Part shown: piece by piece, positions 1,321 to 11,493 of the stretch
Position numbering within the stretch: the stretch's first letter is position 1
Layout of the letters: every line of letters starts with the position of its first letter
DNA from: Promethearchaeota archaeon
GTDB taxonomy: Archaea; Asgardarchaeota; Thorarchaeia; Thorarchaeales; Thorarchaeaceae
Direction of reading: 5' to 3'
Length of the DNA stretch: 19,450 nucleotides
Assembly (NCBI GenBank): GCA_027031765.1
Contig: JALVPN010000027.1
Location: forward strand, 1-19,450
Translations under genes and position numbers: made by a program
The notes under the pieces: model-generated
Database searches by the model: none
Seen by the model: only the letters and a program-made list of their open reading frames with translations
Told to the model about the DNA's origin: nothing

Positions 1321-2238
1321 ATGCCGAAGGCCATCTATACTATCTGGTGGGACAACACACTCGGCCCACTGGTGGGCCGCTCCTATCCTCCGGGAAACGA
1401 GCTGACGACGGAGGAGGCCCTCGTAATATTCATGGGACATGGCGTGAACCAAGAGGCGCGGGTCGGCTACACCAAGCTTGACAGGGGACTTGTCGTGTCC
1501 TTGCTTGATGCGCCCAACTGCATCGCCGTGCTCCTCGATGACGACGACGACGCCATGCTTGTTGAACGTAACCTCCACCGCCTTGTCGGTGAGATCGACT
1601 TCAACACTGACGACTGGGACGTGGAGGTAAGACGTGCCTATGAACGGCTGTTGGATCTCATGGAGGAGGCGTCCCACGATGCGCTGCTGTCCGACCCCGG
1701 CATCAGGCGTCTCATCACTGACATGCAGGCTGGACGCCTCCGTGCAGTCAGTCCCAAGCATGTCCTGCGTGTCACTGCGTACTACCCCGAAGTCGCAGAG
1801 TACTTGGGTGGGAATGCGGATGAGGTGGCAAGGAAGCTCCGGGATCTGGAGAGCGCAGGCATCCTCACTGCGAAGACCTTTGGTAGGAGTATCCAGTGCA
1901 TGAGCTGTGGTTCTACGGAACTGACCGTTACAATAATGTGTCCCCAGTGCGGTTCCACCGAGCTGTACAATGTGTATGGTGTCCTGTGCCAACACTGTGG
2001 TGCGCGCGTCCAGACCGTGATAATGGATGACGTTTCGGAGGTGCCGTGCGCGAGCTGTCATAGGCCCATCAGAGTGGCTGGGCTGGAAATCCTCTCGGTA
2101 GAGGCCCTGTGTTCGGACTGTGGCACGGCGACTGAGGACCCGAAGATTACCCTCCACTGTGCCCTCTGCGGGAAGCGACTCACAATAGCCGACCTGCTGA
2201 GCGCAACTGGCCTTGCATACTACCTCTCGGAGTCCTGA
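1321..2238 (+). CDS. Longin/uDENN-like N-terminal domain + winged helix + triple zinc ribbon (TackOD1-like output domain), 305 aa
   Basis: ATG 1321 is preferred over GTG 1234. The N-terminus IYTIWWDNTLGPLVGRSYP resembles the longin/uDENN 'FDxxxGP...P' hairpin. The C-terminus has KLRDLESAGIL (wHTH recognition helix) followed by six CxxC pairs (CMSC, CPQC, CQHC, CASC, CSDC, CALC) and a terminal AYY, the layout of Thaumarchaeal output domain 1. Confidence 0.7.
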   Translation: MPKAIYTIWWDNTLGPLVGRSYPPGNELTTEEALVIFMGHGVNQEARVGYTKLDRGLVVSLLDAPNCIAVLLDDDDDAMLVERNLHRLVGEIDFNTDDWDVEVRRAYERLLDLMEEASHDALLSDPGIRRLITDMQAGRLRAVSPKHVLRVTAYYPEVAEYLGGNADEVARKLRDLESAGILTAKTFGRSIQCMSCGSTELTVTIMCPQCGSTELYNVYGVLCQHCGARVQTVIMDDVSEVPCASCHRPIRVAGLEILSVEALCSDCGTATEDPKITLHCALCGKRLTIADLLSATGLAYYLSES

Positions 2239-3233: not shown

Positions 3234-4826
3234 TCACTTCCTGTTGTTGTTCCGTTTGATGGTGCTCTGCACCACCTCGCGTGCAGCGGCTATGAGCTTC
3301 TCTGCCAGCTTCACGTTCACACCACTGACCCTTGAAGCAAGACGGCGTGCGTCAGCCCCGGCAAGCTGGGCCGCTGACTCGTAGCCCGCAGTCCGCAGCC
3401 TCCTCTCAAGTCCCGGCCCGATGCCCGGTACACGTCTGAGCGGGAGCACTCTGGCCAGCTCCTCCCCCAAGAAGTCACTGAGCTCGGCATCGCTGATCTC
3501 CTCGGTCGCCTCGATGATGTCAATCTGGGTGCGGATGGACTCGAAGTCCTCCTCTCCCAAGAACGCGGATACGGTCTGCTTGATGAGGGACTCGTCGAAG
3601 TCGAGCGACAGGTCTTCAATCTCGACCTCCCTGCCGACTATCTCTTCGAGGTGTCCGGAGAAGTACAGCGCAACAAGTGCGAAGAGTATTGCGAACTGCC
3701 CACCTACGAGCTTCACCCATGCGGGGGTGTGCCACACTCGCAGGTCGAGGGCCCAGAACAGCGCCATGTACCCCATGAAGAACGTCCACGCGCCCGCAAC
3801 ACGGGTCCCCTTTCCCCTTGCCGAACCCAGTTCCGGCCAGATTAGGAACAGGCACAGCCCCATGAGGAACCCTTCGACGGTCCGCTCAAATACGAGCAGA
3901 GGGGCTGCCAGTACGTGGAAGGAGTAGATGTTGCCGGGGTCTTCGTAGCCATAGAACGCCGACCCGAAGATGACCAGTAGGCCCAAGAGGAGCACCGCCA
4001 TACTGAAGGCGACCTTCCGTCCCCTGCGGTCCGCAATGAGACCGGCCAGGGCTGCGGCACCTGCGAGGACCAGCAGCTGCAACACCCCAATCCCTGAGTA
4101 CTGGCTGAGCGACTCGTACGCGTTGTTCCACGCGAACCCCTCCTCAATCTCCATCTTGGTCGAGAAGTACCACAGCATGTGGGACACCAGGACTGCCACC
4201 ATGGCCACAAAGTACCGCATGGTGTTGCCACGGGCGGCGAGTGGCACCTCCTCAAGACGCCACGTACCTATGGGCACTGATATCACGACGCACCCGAGTG
4301 CCGCCGCGGCTGGGACCAGATAGCTCGAGGCACCAGAGAGCAGCCCCACCAGTGAGGCGGTCTCGTAGGCGAATGCTACGAGCAGGGCCAGCCCAAGGAA
4401 CAGGCCTACGCAGCGCCCTCGGAACCTCACCACGATGCTCCTGCCAAGCTTCACGGCCAGTCCGGTGGCAAAGAAGGCCAGTCCGGCAAATGCAGAGAGC
4501 ACCACTGATGTCTCCATCAGCGGCGAGAAGGGGGACGGTGACCCCAAGACTCCGAGCACTACTCCGAGGGCTGTGGGCACCAGGGTACCGACATATATCA
4601 TCACATCGGTCTGCAGGAAGTGGTCCACGAGGATCCCGCTGATGGGCAGTACCAGCGACGCCGCAAGGGCACCGTACCCCAGCAGGAGGAAGTTGTCAAG
4701 GGCTGGTTCGCTGAACAGCGTCCTTGTGGTCAGTCCGTGGACCATGAAGATGAAGTAGGACAGCATGGGTGCGAAGAGCAGGTACACCGATGCGGTCCTG
4801 ATGGGGAACTCTCTGTACTCCAGCAT
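3234..4826 (-). CDS. MFS-type polytopic membrane protein fused to a C-terminal helix-hairpin-helix domain
   Basis: About 12 hydrophobic segments with MFS motif A (GLIADRRGRK) in the second half, then an acidic linker, then LRRVPGIGPGLERRLRTAGYESAAQLAGADARRLA...LAEKLIAAAR (HhH-type, GIG motif). Confidence 0.75.
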   Translation of the reverse strand: MLEYREFPIRTASVYLLFAPMLSYFIFMVHGLTTRTLFSEPALDNFLLLGYGALAASLVLPISGILVDHFLQTDVMIYVGTLVPTALGVVLGVLGSPSPFSPLMETSVVLSAFAGLAFFATGLAVKLGRSIVVRFRGRCVGLFLGLALLVAFAYETASLVGLLSGASSYLVPAAAALGCVVISVPIGTWRLEEVPLAARGNTMRYFVAMVAVLVSHMLWYFSTKMEIEEGFAWNNAYESLSQYSGIGVLQLLVLAGAAALAGLIADRRGRKVAFSMAVLLLGLLVIFGSAFYGYEDPGNIYSFHVLAAPLLVFERTVEGFLMGLCLFLIWPELGSARGKGTRVAGAWTFFMGYMALFWALDLRVWHTPAWVKLVGGQFAILFALVALYFSGHLEEIVGREVEIEDLSLDFDESLIKQTVSAFLGEEDFESIRTQIDIIEATEEISDAELSDFLGEELARVLPLRRVPGIGPGLERRLRTAGYESAAQLAGADARRLASRVSGVNVKLAEKLIAAAREVVQSTIKRNNNRK

Positions 4827-5097: not shown

Positions 5098-6861
5098 CTA
5101 CGTGCTCGACGCCAGGTGCTGTCGGCGCACACGGTACACGTACACCATTGCTCCCACAGCAAGTGCGCAGACCACTGCCTCCAACACGCGGCCGTCAAAG
5201 CCCACGACTGGGCTGAGACCAGTGGCCACCTCCCGGCCGTCAGGCAGTCCGTCGTCGTCGGTGTCGCTGTCCAGCAGGTCTGAGCCATGCTGGTACTCTT
5301 CAAGGTTGGTCAGGCCATCGTCGTCGGGGTCGAGTGACGCATCGCCGTCGTCGGTCGGGTCGAAGCTGTGGGCCACCTCCCAGCCGTCAGGCAGTCCGTC
5401 GTCGTCAGTGTCAGGGCTCTCACCGTCTGTCATGTACATGGGCTCCGAGTAGTCCGACAGCATATCCCCGTCGGCGTCTACGTCCTTGAGACACCCGGTG
5501 CGGCGGAATGATATGTCCCCACCGTGTCCTTGCCAGTACACCCGGCCCCCACTTACCGACGCCTCTACTGCGTACACATTGCTGTCCTCACTGCCTATGA
5601 CGACGTCGAGGTCGCCGTCGCCGTCTATGTCGCCCAGTGCTGGTGAGGAGGCAACACTGTTCCCGGTCTCGTACGACCAGAGGGTGGAGCCGTTGGCACC
5701 GTCCAGTGCATACACCCAGCTGTCGTAGCTGCCGATGACCACGTCCAGACCCCCATCACCGTCCACATCCCCCAGTGCTGCCGATGAGAGCACGACGTGC
5801 CCGGTGGCGTGTGCCCAGAGGACGGAGCCCGTGGTACCGTCAAGCGCGTACACCCGTCTGTCGTAGCTGCCGATGACCACGTCCAAGTCGCCGTCACCGT
5901 CCACGTCGCCAAGCGCTGCCGATGAGAGCACAGCGTCCCCAGTACCGTGTGCCCAGAGGACGGAGGCCGTGGCACCATCAAGTGCGTACACACTACCGTC
6001 CTCACTACCGACTACCACGTCCACGTCGCCGTCGCCGTCGAGGTCTCCCAGCGCAGGGGAGGAGTACACCCCGCGTCCGGTCTCGTACGACCAGAGGAGG
6101 GATCCTGTGGTGCCCTCAAGCGCGTACACCCGACCGTCATCACTGCCGATGACCACGTCCAAGTCGCCGTCACCATCAACATCGCCGAGCGCAGCTGAAG
6201 AGGCCACCTCGTTTCCGGTCTCGTACGACCAGAGGACAGAACCGTTGGCACCATCAAGCGCATACACCCGACTGTCCTGACTGCCGATGACCACGTCCAA
6301 GTCGCCGTCACTGTCGATGTCCCCAAGTGCTGGCGAGGAGTACACCGGACCTCCAGTACCGAATGACCAGAGGATGGAACCATTGCCACCGTCTAGGGCA
6401 TATACCCGGTTGTCGTCACTGCCCACGACGGCATCGAGGTCGCCGTCACCGTCAACGTCCCCAAGTGATGGGGATGAGGCCACGTATGAGGAGGTGTCAT
6501 GAGACCAGATGATGGAGCCATTGCCACCGTCGAGGGCGTACACCTGGCTGTCGCGACTGCCGATGACCACATCCAGGTCGCCGTCACCGTCAACGTCCCC
6601 GAGCGCAGGTGAGGAGAACACCTCATCCCCTGTCCTGTATGACCAGAGGGTGGAGCTGGGGGCACTGGACCGTGCCTGGTGTCCGGGTGGTGTGGCACCA
6701 GTGAGACCGGGCCCCACCTGTGGGGCTGCAATACCGTCATGGCCGCCGCCCACAGCGGTCACTTGTGGCCTCAGCAAAGTCACCCCTCCATGACCCGATA
6801 CTGCTGCGACTACAAACATCACAGTGACTATGGCTGCAAGCAGAACGAATGGTCTCTGCAT
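5098..6861 (-). CDS. Membrane-anchored surface protein: signal peptide, 8 FG-GAP/PQQ-like beta-propeller repeats, TSP3-like Ca-binding repeats, C-terminal TM anchor
   Basis: Hydrophobic N-terminus; 8 x 46-aa repeats WSYxTGxxVxSSPALGDVDGDGDLDVVIGSxDxxVYALDG; DTDDDGLPDGWE/DPDDDGLTNLEE/DTDDDGLPDGRE acidic repeats; TM VLEAVVCALAVGAMVYVY followed by a basic tail RVRR. Confidence 0.9.
   Translation of the reverse strand: MQRPFVLLAAIVTVMFVVAAVSGHGGVTLLRPQVTAVGGGHDGIAAPQVGPGLTGATPPGHQARSSAPSSTLWSYRTGDEVFSSPALGDVDGDGDLDVVIGSRDSQVYALDGGNGSIIWSHDTSSYVASSPSLGDVDGDGDLDAVVGSDDNRVYALDGGNGSILWSFGTGGPVYSSPALGDIDSDGDLDVVIGSQDSRVYALDGANGSVLWSYETGNEVASSAALGDVDGDGDLDVVIGSDDGRVYALEGTTGSLLWSYETGRGVYSSPALGDLDGDGDVDVVVGSEDGSVYALDGATASVLWAHGTGDAVLSSAALGDVDGDGDLDVVIGSYDRRVYALDGTTGSVLWAHATGHVVLSSAALGDVDGDGGLDVVIGSYDSWVYALDGANGSTLWSYETGNSVASSPALGDIDGDGDLDVVIGSEDSNVYAVEASVSGGRVYWQGHGGDISFRRTGCLKDVDADGDMLSDYSEPMYMTDGESPDTDDDGLPDGWEVAHSFDPTDDGDASLDPDDDGLTNLEEYQHGSDLLDSDTDDDGLPDGREVATGLSPVVGFDGRVLEAVVCALAVGAMVYVYRVRRQHLASST
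5542..6645 (-). repeat. Eight tandem 138-bp intragenic repeats (propeller blades)
   Basis: The GACCAGA motif recurs at 6641, 6503, 6365 and onward with a 138-nt period; DNA similarity is clear (e.g. CTGCCGATGACCACGTCCAAGTCGCCGTCACC). Confidence 0.9.
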
Positions 6862-7059: not shown

Positions 7060-7266
7060 GGTCAGGACCCCGTACGGGCGTTCCCGGGCTACTGGAGTCG
7101 GTTGGCATCGGGGAGGGAGCAAGCGACGTGGTGCAGGGGCCCCCAACACGGCGTGAGAGGGACACATCCTGGACATGGGTTCATGTTTCGGCCCATCCGA
7201 CGAGCTCCCAGACGCGATACCTTAAAGACGCTTTGGGACCGCGTGATAGAGTAGAGGAGAGCGACA

Positions 7267-8151
7267 TTGTCGAGCAGGCTTCGTGTACTGGAGTTCATGG
7301 TCCTGAAAGCTGGCGGGATCCCCGTATTCCACTACTCCTTCTCAGGTGCGCAACGGCTAGATGAGCTGCTCTCCGGTTTCCTGTCCGCCATCACGAGCTT
7401 TGCCTCGGAGTTCGGTGAGCGGTCAGTGCAGAGCCTCTCGTTCGAGGGCTCGGAGCTCCTCTATGAGCAGACCTCCGACATGGCGATGTTCATCTTCCTC
7501 GTCGAGTCGGGCGCCCCGGAGAAGGTGCTGAGGGCCGTCCTCCGTGAACTGAGCGAGAGGTTCCTGTCCCGATATCGTGTGGAGCTCGACATGGACGTGC
7601 CCGTCCGAGAACTCTTCTTGGACTTCAAGCATGATGTCCTGGAAGTGTTCGCACGGTACGAGTCGGTCATGCGTGTTGCGTCGAGTCTGGGGCCCTTTGT
7701 GGTACCGACTATCATCCGGGAGCAGTGGGAGCACACCAGTAGCAGGGGCCTCCTCGATGACCTGCACAGGGACTTCGGCATCACCGCCACGCGTGTGGTC
7801 GAGGCCATTGATGGCAAGAAGCCCCTCCACGAGATTGCGCTATCGCTCGGCCTTGAGGAGGAGGAGGTGGCGCAGGTGGTGGAGTATCTGACGATTGCGG
7901 GCGTCCTTTCGGTCGCACGGATGCACCCTGTTGTGCGTGCCGACGACACTCGTTTTGATGCCTACCTTGACCTCGTGGGCCTGCCACGGAGGGACTACAA
8001 CCTGTTGAAGCGTGCCAGCCCCTTGTGCACCGGGGAGTACCCCCTTACGGTTGTGAGTGAGCGCATTGGCGTCACTGCTGAGAGGCTATACGAGGTTCTG
8101 TCGAAGCTCGGCGACAACGTCCAGTGGCGGCTTGTGGAGGTCGCTGCATGA
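7267..8151 (+). CDS. Longin-domain protein with two C-terminal winged helices (NPRL2-like architecture), 294 aa
   Basis: TTG start after AGAGGAGA. Longin signature VLKAGGIPVFHYSF...ELLSGFLSAITSFASEFGERSVQSLSF...LRAVLRELSERFLSRY. wHTH1: VVEAIDGKKPLHEIALSLGLEEEEVAQVVEYLTIAGVL. wHTH2: LCTGEYPLTVVSERIGVTAERLYEVLSKLG. Confidence 0.8.
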   Translation: MSSRLRVLEFMVLKAGGIPVFHYSFSGAQRLDELLSGFLSAITSFASEFGERSVQSLSFEGSELLYEQTSDMAMFIFLVESGAPEKVLRAVLRELSERFLSRYRVELDMDVPVRELFLDFKHDVLEVFARYESVMRVASSLGPFVVPTIIREQWEHTSSRGLLDDLHRDFGITATRVVEAIDGKKPLHEIALSLGLEEEEVAQVVEYLTIAGVLSVARMHPVVRADDTRFDAYLDLVGLPRRDYNLLKRASPLCTGEYPLTVVSERIGVTAERLYEVLSKLGDNVQWRLVEVAA

Positions 8152-8230
8152 GCCACGAATGTATAAGTGGGCCGGGTACTATCATAGCCATCCATATCTG
8201 TACCCGTGTCCATGTCGAAGGGCGAAACAA

Positions 8231-9544
8231 ATGGTGAAAGAAATCATCGTCCTCAGGGAAACCGGCATCCCACTGTTCCACTACAGCATCAGTGGTACCA
8301 AACGCCTCGACGAGCTGGTGGCCGGTTTCCTGTCCGCCGTTGGCTTCTTTGCCGAGCAGGTGGGTGACGAGAAGATAAAGGTGATCTCCTTCGCGAAGAG
8401 CAAGTTCGTATGGGAGAAGGTCGGCGACCTCTACTTCATTGCCCTTGTTGCTGAGGAGGACAGCCCTGAGATCTACGGCGTCATCCTCCGCAGCCTTGCT
8501 CAGCAATTCGTGGCCACCTACTACTCAGAGCTCCGCAAAGAGGAGCCGAGCCCGAAGGTGTTCGTCGCGTTCTCGGACGTCGTCGAGGCCACGCTCCAGA
8601 AGTTCGATGGCATCCCCGGCATCGCCCGGAGGTACCGTACGGCCCTCGTGCCGGTGGAGACCGTCAGGTCGCTCAAGAAGGCCCAGGCAAGGACCGAGGA
8701 GCACCCCGGTGTACACCGTTCTGCGGTCATTACTTCCGATGGCTACGTCGTGGTCTCCAACTTCAGGACATACGAACTTGAGGCCATTCTCGACATACTG
8801 TTGACGTTCTCCAGTCGCTCCGGCCCCGTCAAGGAGCAGCAGATTGCTGTCCACACGAGCCTCGACTCCAACACCAGGTACTATATCCGCCGCATGGGCC
8901 CGGTCGGCTGTTGCGTGTTCGTGGTCGATGCGGGTCTTGGCCTTGACGAGTGCGAGAGGGTTACGACGCCCCTGCGTGACGAGGTGAGTCGTACCGACTT
9001 CTCCAAGATCCAGCGTATCGACCCGGACGAGAGTGGTGGCGTCCTTGAGTTCTACCCCTACGATGTGTTGCGACTGCTCCGCCCCAAGGAGGAGATAGGA
9101 CAGGAGGAGAACGTCCTGTTTGTCGGACTGCCCATGGTCACCGTACAGAACATCAGGGCCGTCCTGCGGACTGTTGGTGAGAACACCACCTTGGACGAAG
9201 TGTACGAGGACAGCGGCCTTGAGCGTGAGGACGTGGACGAGGCGCTTGCCATACTCATCAGCAAGGGACTGGCAGAAGTGGTACGTGTTTTCCCGGTCAT
9301 CGCGGACCGCGACGAGCGCTTCGCAGCATTCCTCGAGGTCATCGGCATCCCCAAACGTGACTATGTTGTCCTCGACACCATCTGGGAGTACTGCAACGGC
9401 AGCCACTCCATCCGCGAGATATCGGAGAAGACACGGGTCCCGGCGTCGCGGATTGTCGAAGTCATGAGGGCGCTCGGCAGGTACGTGGAGTGGAACACAG
9501 AACGAATGCTGACGACCTCCCGCCGGGTCGAGGGCCGACCGTGA
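8231..9544 (+). CDS. Paralogous longin + roadblock-like + two winged-helix protein, 437 aa
   Basis: The start is set at ATG 8231 (MVKEIIVLRETGIPLFHYS) by alignment to the upstream paralogue; the track start at 8057 overlaps the previous gene. The central insert GVHRSAVITSDGYVVVSNF resembles the roadblock/LC7 beta-hairpin. The C-terminal half aligns with that of 7267-8151. Confidence 0.8.
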   Translation: MVKEIIVLRETGIPLFHYSISGTKRLDELVAGFLSAVGFFAEQVGDEKIKVISFAKSKFVWEKVGDLYFIALVAEEDSPEIYGVILRSLAQQFVATYYSELRKEEPSPKVFVAFSDVVEATLQKFDGIPGIARRYRTALVPVETVRSLKKAQARTEEHPGVHRSAVITSDGYVVVSNFRTYELEAILDILLTFSSRSGPVKEQQIAVHTSLDSNTRYYIRRMGPVGCCVFVVDAGLGLDECERVTTPLRDEVSRTDFSKIQRIDPDESGGVLEFYPYDVLRLLRPKEEIGQEENVLFVGLPMVTVQNIRAVLRTVGENTTLDEVYEDSGLEREDVDEALAILISKGLAEVVRVFPVIADRDERFAAFLEVIGIPKRDYVVLDTIWEYCNGSHSIREISEKTRVPASRIVEVMRALGRYVEWNTERMLTTSRRVEGRP

Positions 9545-9585
9545 CGACGGAAGACATTTCTTCCCCGGTGCAACAGTAGCAGTCC

Positions 9586-10539
9586 ATGCCAGACCTTGAG
9601 AGCCGATACGTGGGCTGCATGCTCGGTATGGCCATCGGTGATGCCCTGGGTGGGCCCACTGAGTTCATGTCCTTTGAGTCAATCCGCAAGACATGGCCAC
9701 CCGGTGGTGTCACGGACTTCTGCAGCTTCAGGGGCCTGCCAGCTGGCTCCTATACTGACGACACCGAGATGGCCCTTGCTGTGGCGCGCGGCATCCTTGG
9801 TGCCAGCTCGCTCGACGTGACCGCCATACTTGATGCAATAGCCGGCGAGTTCGTCCGGTGGTACGAGAATGTCGACTGGGCACGCTCGCCCGGCACGACG
9901 TGTACCGGCTCGGTTGCGAAACTCGTTGAGGGGGAGCACTGGACGGCCTCTGGGAGGAATGACTCCATGGGCTGTGGGACTGCGATGCGCGCACCACCCG
10001 TAGGCCTTGCATTTGCCCCCGACCGTGACCTCCTCCGGGAGGTCGCAGCCCGTCAGTCGCTCATCACGCACGGCCACGATGTCGCAACAGCGGGCTCGGT
10101 TGCGGTGGCCCTGATGGTCGCCGAGGCTGTCCAGGGGGCCCATCCGGACGACCTTCTCGCAATAGTGCGTGACTCCGTCGCCGAGATCAGCGATGTGTTC
10201 CTTGAAGCCCTCGACCGCGTGCCACCTGCTGTTGAGCTGGGAAATACGGCTCAGGCGCACTCCCTCCTGGGCCCCGGCTGGACGGCGGACGAGGCCGTCG
10301 CAGGTGCACTACATGCACTTACAATGCACCCGACATCATACAGGGACGCGGTACTTGAGGCAGCGAACTCCGGTGGTGACACCGACACGAAGGCATGCAT
10401 CGTGGGGGCTGTACTCGGGGCATCCTTGGGTGTCGGGGGCATCCCTGATGTTTGGCGCCAACATGTGGAGGACGGCGAGCTGCTTGTCGAGACCGGCAGA
10501 GAACTGTTGCTCTATGTCCGTCGCCACTTCGGAATATGA
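9586..10539 (+). CDS. ADP-ribosylglycohydrolase (DraG/ARH family)
   Basis: Family motifs GMAIGDALGGPTEF, YTDDTEM, GCGTAMR (GNG..MR variant), SLITHGH and NSGGDTDT...GAVLGA; the metal-binding acidic residues are intact. Confidence 0.93.
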   Translation: MPDLESRYVGCMLGMAIGDALGGPTEFMSFESIRKTWPPGGVTDFCSFRGLPAGSYTDDTEMALAVARGILGASSLDVTAILDAIAGEFVRWYENVDWARSPGTTCTGSVAKLVEGEHWTASGRNDSMGCGTAMRAPPVGLAFAPDRDLLREVAARQSLITHGHDVATAGSVAVALMVAEAVQGAHPDDLLAIVRDSVAEISDVFLEALDRVPPAVELGNTAQAHSLLGPGWTADEAVAGALHALTMHPTSYRDAVLEAANSGGDTDTKACIVGAVLGASLGVGGIPDVWRQHVEDGELLVETGRELLLYVRRHFGI

Positions 10540-10654
10540 TACGATTCGGCACCCGTCCTCTGCGTCGTACGGCATGCCCCTTGAGGGTTTCCACAGGTCA
10601 CCAGTGGTCTCTCGTCGCCGGTGCAGTATGCGCCCGTCACATGCAGGCCCAATA

Positions 10655-10681
10655 CCGAGTCCTACTCGGAAACACTTTAAG
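10655..10681 (+). promoter_or_regulatory. Perfect inverted repeat CCGAGT-cct-ACTCGG next to a BRE/TATA-like GAAACACTTTAAG
   Basis: Palindrome at 10655-10669, CTTTAAG at 10675-10681, about 50 nt upstream of ATG 10732. Confidence 0.5.
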
Positions 10682-10731
10682 CACAGCAACACATGGACAG
10701 CCATAGGACATATGATTTGGGGCCTCTACTG

Positions 10732-11493
10732 ATGTCAGGGCGCATTGTCAGCATTCACTCGTTCCGTGGCGGCACTGGCAAGTCGAACATCTCGGCCAAC
10801 CTCGCAGCGGTAGCTGCACTTGCGGGGAAGCGGGTCGCAGTGATGGACACAGACGTTGCATCACCCGGCATCCACGTGATTTTTGGGATGGGCCGCGAGA
10901 AACTCCAGTACACTCTCAACGACTACCTCAGGGGCGAGTGTGACATCACTGATGCGTGCATTGACATGACCCGTCGCTTGGGCATCAGACAGGGCAAACT
11001 ATACCTCATCCCGAGCTCCATGAGCGCCAACGACATAACGCGCATACTCCGGGAGGGCTATGAGGTCTCTGACCTGAGGAACGGTTTCTCTGAGGTGATT
11101 GAGGCACGCGACCTCGACTACCTGATAATCGACACCCACCCGGGCCTCGACAGGGAAACGCTCCTGTCCATGGCCACAGCCGACTTCCTCTTCGTCGTCG
11201 CTAGGATTGACGAGCAGGACCTCCTCGGTACCGCCGCCACTCTGAGCGTTGCACGGAAGCTCCAGGTCCCAGACATCCGCATCATAGTCAACAAGAAGCC
11301 CAGTATCTATGAGGACAGGGCAATCCTGTCAGAGGTGGAGCGCAAGTTCAGGACCAAGGTCGCTACGATAATACCCCTCGTTCCCATCCTGATAGAGGCT
11401 GGCAGCCGCTACATCGTCACGCTCAAACACCCGGACAACGAGTTCACGAAGCGCATTGAGGAGGTATACAGGGTGATGGAGGGCGAGGCCTGA
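10732..11493 (+). CDS. MinD/ParA-family (SIMIBI) ATPase, SxRGGTGKS subtype, 253 aa
   Basis: SIHSFRGGTGKSNISANLA (deviant Walker A), VAVMDTDVASPG (switch I), LIIDTHPG (Walker B), VNK. ATG 10732 is preferred because ATG 10693 lies too close to the TATA-like box. Confidence 0.9.
   Translation: MSGRIVSIHSFRGGTGKSNISANLAAVAALAGKRVAVMDTDVASPGIHVIFGMGREKLQYTLNDYLRGECDITDACIDMTRRLGIRQGKLYLIPSSMSANDITRILREGYEVSDLRNGFSEVIEARDLDYLIIDTHPGLDRETLLSMATADFLFVVARIDEQDLLGTAATLSVARKLQVPDIRIIVNKKPSIYEDRAILSEVERKFRTKVATIIPLVPILIEAGSRYIVTLKHPDNEFTKRIEEVYRVMEGEA

Follow-up and report, generated by a model that had tools for sequence, protein, structure and literature searches.

The stretch analysed here (the window, 19,450 nucleotides, nt) is the whole of contig JALVPN010000027.1 (C27 in our numbering) of a thorarchaeal genome, Promethearchaeota archaeon assembly GCA_027031765.1, which has a size of 2.95 Mb and is 95% complete. 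It contains four genes that follow each other on one strand: two for longin proteins with winged helix-turn-helix (wHTH) domains (G1 and G2), one for an ADP-ribosylglycohydrolase (ARH) and one for a ParA/MinD-type ATPase. We believe that they represent a conserved module of Asgard archaea that has been interrupted in this genome by an unrelated gene; the probability of this reading is, in our estimate, roughly 0.55. The module consists of G2 followed by the ATPase gene, with G1 just upstream and a divergently oriented gene for an MFS-like membrane protein with a C-terminal helix-hairpin-helix (MFS-HhH). As to its narrower core, we are fairly sure that G2 (possibly together with G1) and the ATPase form one functional unit and that ARH lies outside it.

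Linkage of G2 and the ATPase, and the ARH gene between them

The relevant sets of genomes were as follows. G2, ARH and the ATPase served as queries against 40 relatives; 39 Thorarchaeota loci besides the window were collected from species-representative genomes; and in families f1, f2 and f12, from 400 genomes sampled across the phylum, the occurrence of G2 and the ATPase was counted.

Among the 40 relatives, the ATPase (75-88% identical) is encoded directly downstream of G2 almost everywhere. The gene directly before it is G2 in 35 of the 39 Thorarchaeota loci and a G1-type gene in three; in the remaining one, which belongs to the nearest relative (G015), it is neither. In the phylum sample, the two genes are adjacent and co-oriented in 73 of the 75 genomes that have both (f1, 56/58; f2, 1/1; f12, 16/16). 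Measured between the stop codon of G2 and the start codon of the ATPase, the distance in Thorarchaeota has a median of -1 nt; the reading frames overlap in 20 of 37 loci, and the distance does not exceed 30 nt in 33 of them. The gaps in f12 are 22-103 nt, and the distance in the window is 1,187 nt.

The more distant lineages are of particular value here. Family f12 and a genome labelled 'Candidatus Hodarchaeota' at NCBI have only the genes for MFS-HhH, G2 and the ATPase in common with the Thorarchaeota locus, and MFS-HhH is again divergent and upstream. (In 31 of 40 loci, namely 30 Thorarchaeota loci and the window, its gene immediately precedes G1/G2 in divergent orientation.) Since f12 has the G2-type gene and lacks G1, we conclude that G1 is a duplication specific to Thorarchaeota that lost the roadblock domain. 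Judging by these arrangements, the link between the longin protein and the ATPase is strongly supported.

The distance between G1 and G2 is less uniform. They are 2-3.7 kb apart, with inserted genes between them, in L050, L067, L075, L091 and L092; in G019, G1 is encoded on the other strand at a distance of about 13 kb, and 3.3 kb lie between G2 and the ATPase. MFS-HhH, G1, G2 and the ATPase are all absent from three genomes (G009, G002 and G024); the flanking TackOD1 and GNAT genes are absent from the first two as well, so this co-loss says nothing about the boundaries of the unit.

The ARH product matches PF03747 over its full length (244 bits against a cut-off of 26.2) and looks intact. Its closest structure is that of MJ1187 from M. 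jannaschii (1T5J, E 2.5e-29), followed by DraG, and the metal-binding motifs YTDDTE and GGDTDT are retained in the alignment to MJ1187. Assignment to the DraG equivalog TIGR02662 was considered and rejected (122.4 bits against a cut-off of 337). No ARH gene was found at or within 6 kb of the module in the 39 other Thorarchaeota loci. Matches to the ARH family (E <=1e-10) occur in eight of 24 genomes of the same family, always on another contig, and close orthologues (50-54% identity) only in G013, G007 and G022, which belong to three other genera and show no neighbours common across genera.

Within the closest sub-clade, the place between G2 and the ATPase is taken by ARH in the window and by other genes in the relatives. 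In L104, a class-I S-adenosylmethionine-dependent methyltransferase is encoded just upstream of the ATPase on the opposite strand (L104:1165-1992 (-)), with G2 still upstream; L105-L107 have a methyltransferase gene upstream of the ATPase on the same strand (L105:1-648 (+)); and in G015 the ATPase is preceded by open reading frames (ORFs) for fn3-like proteins, with the G1-G2 pair on another contig. This gene content points to the G2-ATPase junction as a repeated insertion site in this sub-clade and to ARH as a passenger gene that was inserted there in this genome only. Most likely, the accident of its position has brought it into one transcript with G2. A search for flanking repeats as a sign of a mobile element at ARH gave chance-level matches only; the best of them (14 nt, 86% identity) pairs 9559 with 10612.

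The genome has a second, distant ARH paralogue (G000:C143:7038-7928, 35% identity), where the match crosses one in-frame TAG. SIR2-family genes are present on other contigs. Searches of the genome for DraT (PF07357) and PARP (PF00644) gave no match, but the control genomes were silent too.

A preliminary description of this stretch, made from its letters, had treated the longin pair, ARH and the ATPase as one candidate module, possibly controlled by reversible ADP-ribosylation, and considered the linkage of the ATPase weaker than that of ARH. The comparison reverses this order: the ATPase appears to be the real partner and ARH the passenger. Conservation of the gene neighbourhood, which the same description proposed as a check, held for the longin-ATPase part in the 73 genomes given above and failed for ARH, which is unlinked from the longin pair in related genomes. 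With ARH absent at the 39 other loci, its orthologues scattered and other genes in its place, the proposed control by ADP-ribosylation is not sustained.

Predicted folds and motifs of the encoded proteins

G1 and G2 are paralogues with 34% identity in their N-terminal and C-terminal parts alike; relative to G1, G2 has an extra internal block of about 140 residues. AlphaFold2 models were computed from alignments of orthologues. The model of G1 (predicted local distance difference test score, pLDDT, 82.6; predicted template modelling score, pTM, 0.73) comprises a longin domain at about residues 7-139 and two wHTH domains at about 172-291, with no roadblock domain. In the model of G2 (pLDDT 80.8), a longin domain (order of strands and helices bb-a-bbb-a) is followed by a roadblock domain (a-bb-a-bbb-a) and then by two wHTH domains. 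The longin domain of G2 superposes on that of VAMP7 (Z 15.6, 2.1 Å, 114 residues), and its roadblock domain on Asgard MK-D1 Roadblock3 and on MglB (Z 12.4). The TrmB family PF01978 is matched in G2 above its cut-off (33.9 bits).

Foldseek searches with G2 gave Mon1-Ccz1, Fuzzy-Inturned and GATOR1 (E 1e-8 to 1e-6). The top ten Protein Data Bank (PDB) matches of G1 are all GATOR1 chains, from entries with NPRL2 and NPRL3 (E 6e-9 to 1e-5). The predicted folds thus have the architecture of NPRL2 and NPRL3, i.e., a longin domain and C-terminal winged-helix-type domains in a paralogous pair, and the models and structural matches agree with the earlier designation of G1 and G2 as a longin-wHTH pair. 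We also considered a tri-longin-domain guanine nucleotide exchange factor (GEF) for Rab proteins, of the type of Mon1-Ccz1, Fuzzy-Inturned or BLOC-3. This was rejected: G2 has two domains of the longin/roadblock type, not three, and its matches to such structures are confined to residues 1-260.

A sequence search of the PDB with G1 and G2 gave nothing useful, NCBIfam had no match for either, and the protein atlas returned only their own Thorarchaeota clusters, without names. G1 is 50-58% identical to its Thorarchaeota orthologues. A G2 profile run against 1.84 billion representative proteins found 16 at E <=1e-30, so the full G2 architecture is narrowly distributed. Three distant proteins (P0171, P0140 and P0269) share only the C-terminal module of G2, and none of them is encoded next to an orthologue of this ATPase.

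The loop between the first two strands of the longin domain carries a G-x-P motif, with G17 and P19 invariant in G1 and G12 invariant in G2. The alignment of orthologues, taken without residue-level superposition, shows no invariant arginine in the G2 longin domain, where K58 is invariant.

The family to which G1 and G2 belong is the 'NPRL2-like' family of Liu et al., which combines a longin domain with an NPRL2-type C-terminal domain and is present in most Thorarchaeota metagenome-assembled genomes (bioRxiv 10.1101/2020.10.19.343400). Liu et al. do not mention an ATPase for this family.

The Pfam matches of the ATPase are to families of the ParA/MinD type. Its start codon agrees with the N-termini of its orthologues, and the nearest solved sequence is MinD-1 of Archaeoglobus (1HYQ, E 5e-16), with bacterial MinD and FleN also among the matches. 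The Walker A motif has an arginine at the position of the signature lysine of MinD, and this residue is invariant in 19 orthologues from four lineages. The other residues invariant in these 19 are G13-K17-S18, D39-T40-D41, S44-P45-G46, D134-T135-H136-P137-G138 and N187; the arginine is R12. Apart from this substitution, the motifs for nucleotide binding are intact. An identification as the MinD cell-division ATPase was rejected, considering the replaced lysine and the scores far under the cut-offs for archaeal MinD (TIGR01969, 89.9 bits against 201.75) and bacterial MinD (TIGR01968, 60.2 against 212.9). MinE, MinC or ParB are not encoded next to it, and no Min partner was found in the window or the related loci, a genome-wide search for one not having been made.

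The orthologues are 72-90% identical in Thorarchaeota, 52-56% in a second group and about 50% in genomes labelled Helarchaeota; all the close ones are from Asgard archaea. Compared over ten neighbouring genes, the median identity to the window copy is 80% for the ATPase, 57% for AOR, 54% for G1, 47% for G2 and 40-54% for the others. By this measure the ATPase is the most conserved and slowest-evolving gene of the block.

Gene layout, promoter-like elements and flanking genes

The coordinates of the features are collected in Table 1. The spacers between the four genes are 79, 41 and 192 nt, in agreement with the preliminary description. The sole sequencing run found to carry this stretch is a hydrothermal-vent metagenome. 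Both ARH junctions are spanned by Logan contigs, assembled independently from this probable source run; therefore, as far as the source data show, the gene order is not an assembly artefact. The absence of a small GTPase gene from the contig (and hence from the entire window), also noted earlier, is borne out: the 27 Ras-family matches of the genome (25 above the Pfam cut-off) are all on other contigs.

Table 1. Coordinates of the features in the window
Feature	Positions	Strand	Remarks
MFS-like membrane protein with C-terminal helix-hairpin-helix (MFS-HhH)	3234-4826	-	PF14520 HHH_5, E 2.7e-10
Repeat-rich protein	5098-6861	-	GDxDGDGxLD...VYALDG repeats (FG-GAP-like according to the preliminary description); probably secreted
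TATA-like box GATACCTTAAAGA	7216-7228	+	about 40 nt upstream of G1
G1 (NPRL2/NPRL3-like; longin and two wHTH)	7267-8151	+	TTG start, 294 aa
TATA-like box TGTATAAGTG	8153-8162	+	G1-G2 spacer
G2 (longin, roadblock and two wHTH)	8231-9544	+	437 aa
G2, longin domain	8231-8614	+	AlphaFold2
G2, roadblock domain	8630-9010	+	AlphaFold2
G2, two wHTH domains	9119-9496	+	AlphaFold2
ARH (ADP-ribosylglycohydrolase, ARH/DraG family)	9586-10539	+	317 aa; PF03747, E 3e-72
TATA-like box CTTTAAG	10675-10681	+	51 nt before the ATPase start; specific to this genome
ParA/MinD-type ATPase	10732-11493	+	253 aa; Walker A SFRGGTGKS

The GATACCTTAAAGA box stands at the same distance before G1 in most of 31 Thorarchaeota loci, and most Thorarchaeota loci have kept a box of the GGTATAAGTG type some 45-70 nt ahead of G2. 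No conserved TATA-like box was found before the ATPase in the Thorarchaeota loci, most of which have no spacer between G2 and the ATPase. Considering the conserved boxes before G1 and G2 and the lack of room for one before the ATPase, the ancestral transcription units were likely G1 alone and G2 with the ATPase.

The ATPase of this genome does have a TATA-like box of its own, as the preliminary description pointed out. The window contains only three matches to the pattern YTTWAAR, all of them preceding genes. The region upstream of the ATPase has no clear similarity to that in the nearest relative (G015). The box belongs to this genome, whose insertion broke the ancestral coupling of G2 and the ATPase. 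No TATA-like box was found in the gap between G2 and ARH. The units in this genome are likely G2 with ARH and the ATPase alone, as suggested by the position of these elements.

The divergent intergenic region between MFS-HhH and G1 contains a motif, AATATGGAC(A/C)TTTCG, that is conserved in most Thorarchaeota loci (7172-7195 in the window); in L040-L077 it lies about 100 nt upstream of G1. It may be an operator or the promoter of MFS-HhH. The window has a degenerate copy (..CATGTTTCGG) beside G1, split from MFS-HhH by an inserted gene.

This inserted gene encodes the repeat-rich protein of Table 1. It belongs to no gene family common to at least four of the 40 compared loci, and in other Thorarchaeota MFS-HhH directly adjoins G1; it is thus an insertion specific to the window. 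With both the repeat protein and ARH inserted, the two junctions of the conserved trio are disrupted in this genome.

Thorarchaeota share the gene order of a block that runs from TackOD1 to GDPD and includes housekeeping-type neighbours (MTD, AOR and GNAT). The TackOD1-domain protein (1321-2238, plus strand; PF18551, E 5e-22) is encoded in 23 of the 40 compared loci, including the window. Its N-terminal sequence WDNTLGP has the spacing of the W-D...G-P motifs of the C9orf72 longin domain (PMC12290439).

Explanations, related systems and significance

The following mechanism can be proposed for the module. The ATPase would be an ATP-dependent dimerising switch of the ParA type with arginine for lysine. 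G2 would be its cognate partner, acting as a homodimer or, in Thorarchaeota, in a heterodimer with G1 that is joined by the longin/roadblock platform, and would play the role that ParB, McdB, MinE or FleQ have for other members of the family. The platform would dock on the ATP-bound ATPase and set its hydrolysis, and the tandem wHTH domains would bind DNA. Whether the wHTH proteins occupy DNA at all, and at which place, could then depend on the nucleotide state; this might happen close to the MFS-HhH protein, itself a possible third component. The output may be gene regulation, the positioning of DNA or of a complex, or defence. As worded, this mechanism is tentative, and we consider it much less probable than the existence of the unit itself. 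The preliminary description had already suggested that a longin-roadblock complex regulates an ATPase of the SIMIBI class rather than an adjacent small GTPase; gene linkage in two lineages now speaks for the pairing, while regulation is still something that we only infer.

Several observations weigh against the conserved-module reading. The gene order of the full 19-kb block is conserved within Thorarchaeota, so adjacency alone is weak evidence within the family; the case for linkage rests on the reading-frame overlaps and on the two more distant lineages. G2 is present in only two of 17 genomes of genus g3, where a G1-type gene precedes the ATPase by 112-220 nt (L047, L053, L055 and G017:C35). 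A broken coupling, with genes that nevertheless look intact, is seen in G015, in G019 and in the genome of the window. No longin protein is encoded beside the ATPase in the Helarchaeota-labelled loci (L084-L087), so the link is not obligatory; the order there is a tetratricopeptide repeat-like protein of 350-530 aa, a small protein of 110-137 aa, the ATPase orthologue (46-50% identity, motif SFRGGTGKSN retained) and a coiled-coil wHTH protein of about 200 aa. At the protein level, contacts among G1, G2 and the ATPase are hypothetical, and DNA binding by the wHTH domains is assumed from the match to the TrmB family. Binding to DNA is not known for the C-terminal domains of NPRL2 and NPRL3.

Other explanations of the same locus deserve attention. 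The longin-roadblock platform of G2 (or of G1 and G2) could act on the SIMIBI-class ATPase as a regulator similar to a GTPase-activating protein (GAP) or a GEF and form, with MFS-HhH, a membrane-linked sensing switch, in loose parallel to SLC38A9-Ragulator-GATOR1; we find this unlikely. Slightly less probable still is an anti-invader immune function of the 'ParA-wHTH' kind, in which the wHTH protein recognises foreign DNA and the ATPase coats or sequesters it, as has been proposed for the ConB2 assemblage of ParA proteins in a preprint discussed below. The arginine in Walker A is as described there for this assemblage, the invariant SPG and HPG of the ATPase may correspond to its PG motif, and the wHTH protein next to the Helarchaeota-labelled orthologues has a long N-terminal helix that fits the description given there. 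A weak similarity between the first wHTH domain of G2 and this Helarchaeota-type partner was detected with hhalign (probability 21%, E 1e-3; shared G-[IL]-x-[KR]-[KR]...D-x-I-W). However, Thorarchaeota have the module in one copy and in a syntenic position among housekeeping-type neighbours, apparently by vertical inheritance; the ATPase is the slowest-evolving gene and G1 and G2 change at the pace of their neighbours (47-54%) rather than rapidly; and the PADLOC defence families gave no match except a weak one to a P-loop. We regard as improbable, to a similar degree, that G1 and G2 are a GAP or GEF platform, like GATOR1 or Mon1-Ccz1, for a small GTPase encoded elsewhere, the ATPase being merely co-expressed. 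The closest structures (NPRL2/NPRL3, Mon1-Ccz1 and Fuzzy-Inturned) would fit, as would the presence of some 25 Ras-superfamily GTPases on other contigs; the G-x-P motif recalls the 'GP motif' which, with an arginine finger, is found in GAP-type longins and in some longins of Asgard archaea (Traffic 2025, PMC12290439); and the GTPase genes of Asgard archaea generally do not share operons with genes for roadblock or longin proteins (Tran et al., PMC10933270). This explanation leaves the overlaps of G2 with the ATPase, and their joint retention amid changed neighbours, without a cause; moreover, the G2 longin domain has no invariant arginine, and a small GTPase adjoins the module in no locus examined.

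That G2 and the ATPase have no functional link and are neighbours through a frozen gene order seems very improbable. The synteny of the TackOD1-to-GDPD block across the family favours it, as do the three genomes without the whole block, whose co-loss is silent on unit boundaries; against it speak the stop/start overlaps, and also f12 and the 'Hodarchaeota'-labelled genome, which retain G2, the ATPase and MFS-HhH amid otherwise different neighbours. Least credible of all is a single module of the longin pair, ARH and the ATPase under reversible ADP-ribosylation with the transferase encoded elsewhere. It is true that ARH follows G2 on the same strand after a short gap with no box and is probably co-transcribed with it, that its metal-binding motifs are retained, and that the genome has SIR2-family genes; but the other Thorarchaeota loci lack ARH at this place, the matches in the family are unlinked, the three close orthologues share no neighbours, and a methyltransferase or other ORFs fill the slot in the closest relatives.

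The preliminary description stated that no account of this combination of genes was known. This is outdated, considering the family of Liu et al. and a preprint of October 2026 (bioRxiv 10.64898/2026.10.19.760177). The main text of the latter describes a ParA assemblage, ConB2, with arginine in place of the Walker A lysine, and includes in it a 'ParA-wHTH system', found mostly in archaea, some of whose wHTH partners carry a profilin-longin-like domain as a fusion; an immune role with rapidly evolving wHTH partners is proposed for this system, and bacterial loci are reported in which ParA replaces MglA beside MglB (10.64898/2026.10.19.760177). As far as that text goes, the Thorarchaeota module is probably a member or a close relative of the ParA-wHTH system. 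The likeness consists in the invariant R12 of the Walker A motif and in the coupling of the ATPase to wHTH genes in the 73 genomes, with two wHTH domains each in G1 and G2. ConB2 proteins also have a PG motif after sensor-1, which may correspond to one of the invariant S44-P45-G46 and H136-P137-G138 of our ATPase. The Helarchaeota-labelled loci of this ATPase fit the plain form of the system as it is described there. Unlike PwHTH1 of that system, which has an elongated N-terminal helix, G1 and G2 have a longin or longin-roadblock N-terminus, and the slow evolution, single copy and synteny of the module in Thorarchaeota do not look defence-like. The main text of the preprint does not mention Asgard archaea, roadblock domains or the NPRL2-like architecture. 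The module is, in sum, an already noted variant, with an NPRL2/3-like longin-roadblock partner, of ParA-partner systems.

With NPRL2-NPRL3 of GATOR1 (Npr2-Npr3 in yeast), G1 and G2 share the paralogous pair, the N-terminal longin and the C-terminal winged-helix-type domains. They differ in the extra roadblock domain of G2, in that no conserved arginine finger was identified, and in C-terminal domains that match the DNA-binding TrmB wHTH family; a DEPDC5-like partner or a Rag GTPase is not linked to them in the window or the related loci, a genome-wide search not having been made. With regard to the NPRL2-like family as described by Liu et al., the difference is the conserved neighbour, a ParA/MinD-type ATPase. 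The MglA-MglB and Rag-Ragulator systems also have a dimeric platform encoded beside a nucleotide switch, and the G2 roadblock domain superposes on MglB; however, a SIMIBI-class ATPase takes the place of the Ras-like GTPase as the switch here, and the platform is fused to domains of a DNA-binding type. The pairs MinD/MinE, ParA/ParB and FleN/FleQ resemble the module in the fold of the deviant Walker A family and in that a probable partner is encoded next to the ATPase. The partner found here has a fold of a class that is not known from any of them. ARH, finally, resembles DraG, ARH1/ARH3 and MJ1187 in its full-length PF03747 domain and metal-binding motifs, but it is not a DraG equivalog and has no conserved neighbours; the ADP-ribosylhydrolase should stay out of models of the module.

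Longin and roadblock domains are the core of eukaryotic small-GTPase switching in membrane traffic and nutrient sensing, and their origin is an open question of eukaryogenesis. In the archaeal group nearest to eukaryotes, proteins similar to NPRL2/3 are tied by gene order and frame overlap to a ParA/MinD-type ATPase, which makes them a testable pair, and the genome studied here provides a naturally occurring break, by insertion, in the ancestral coupling between G2 and the ATPase. If the unlikely sensing-switch explanation were true, the platforms that eukaryotes use only for small GTPases (GATOR1, Ragulator and Mon1-Ccz1) would have served another nucleotide switch in Asgard archaea.

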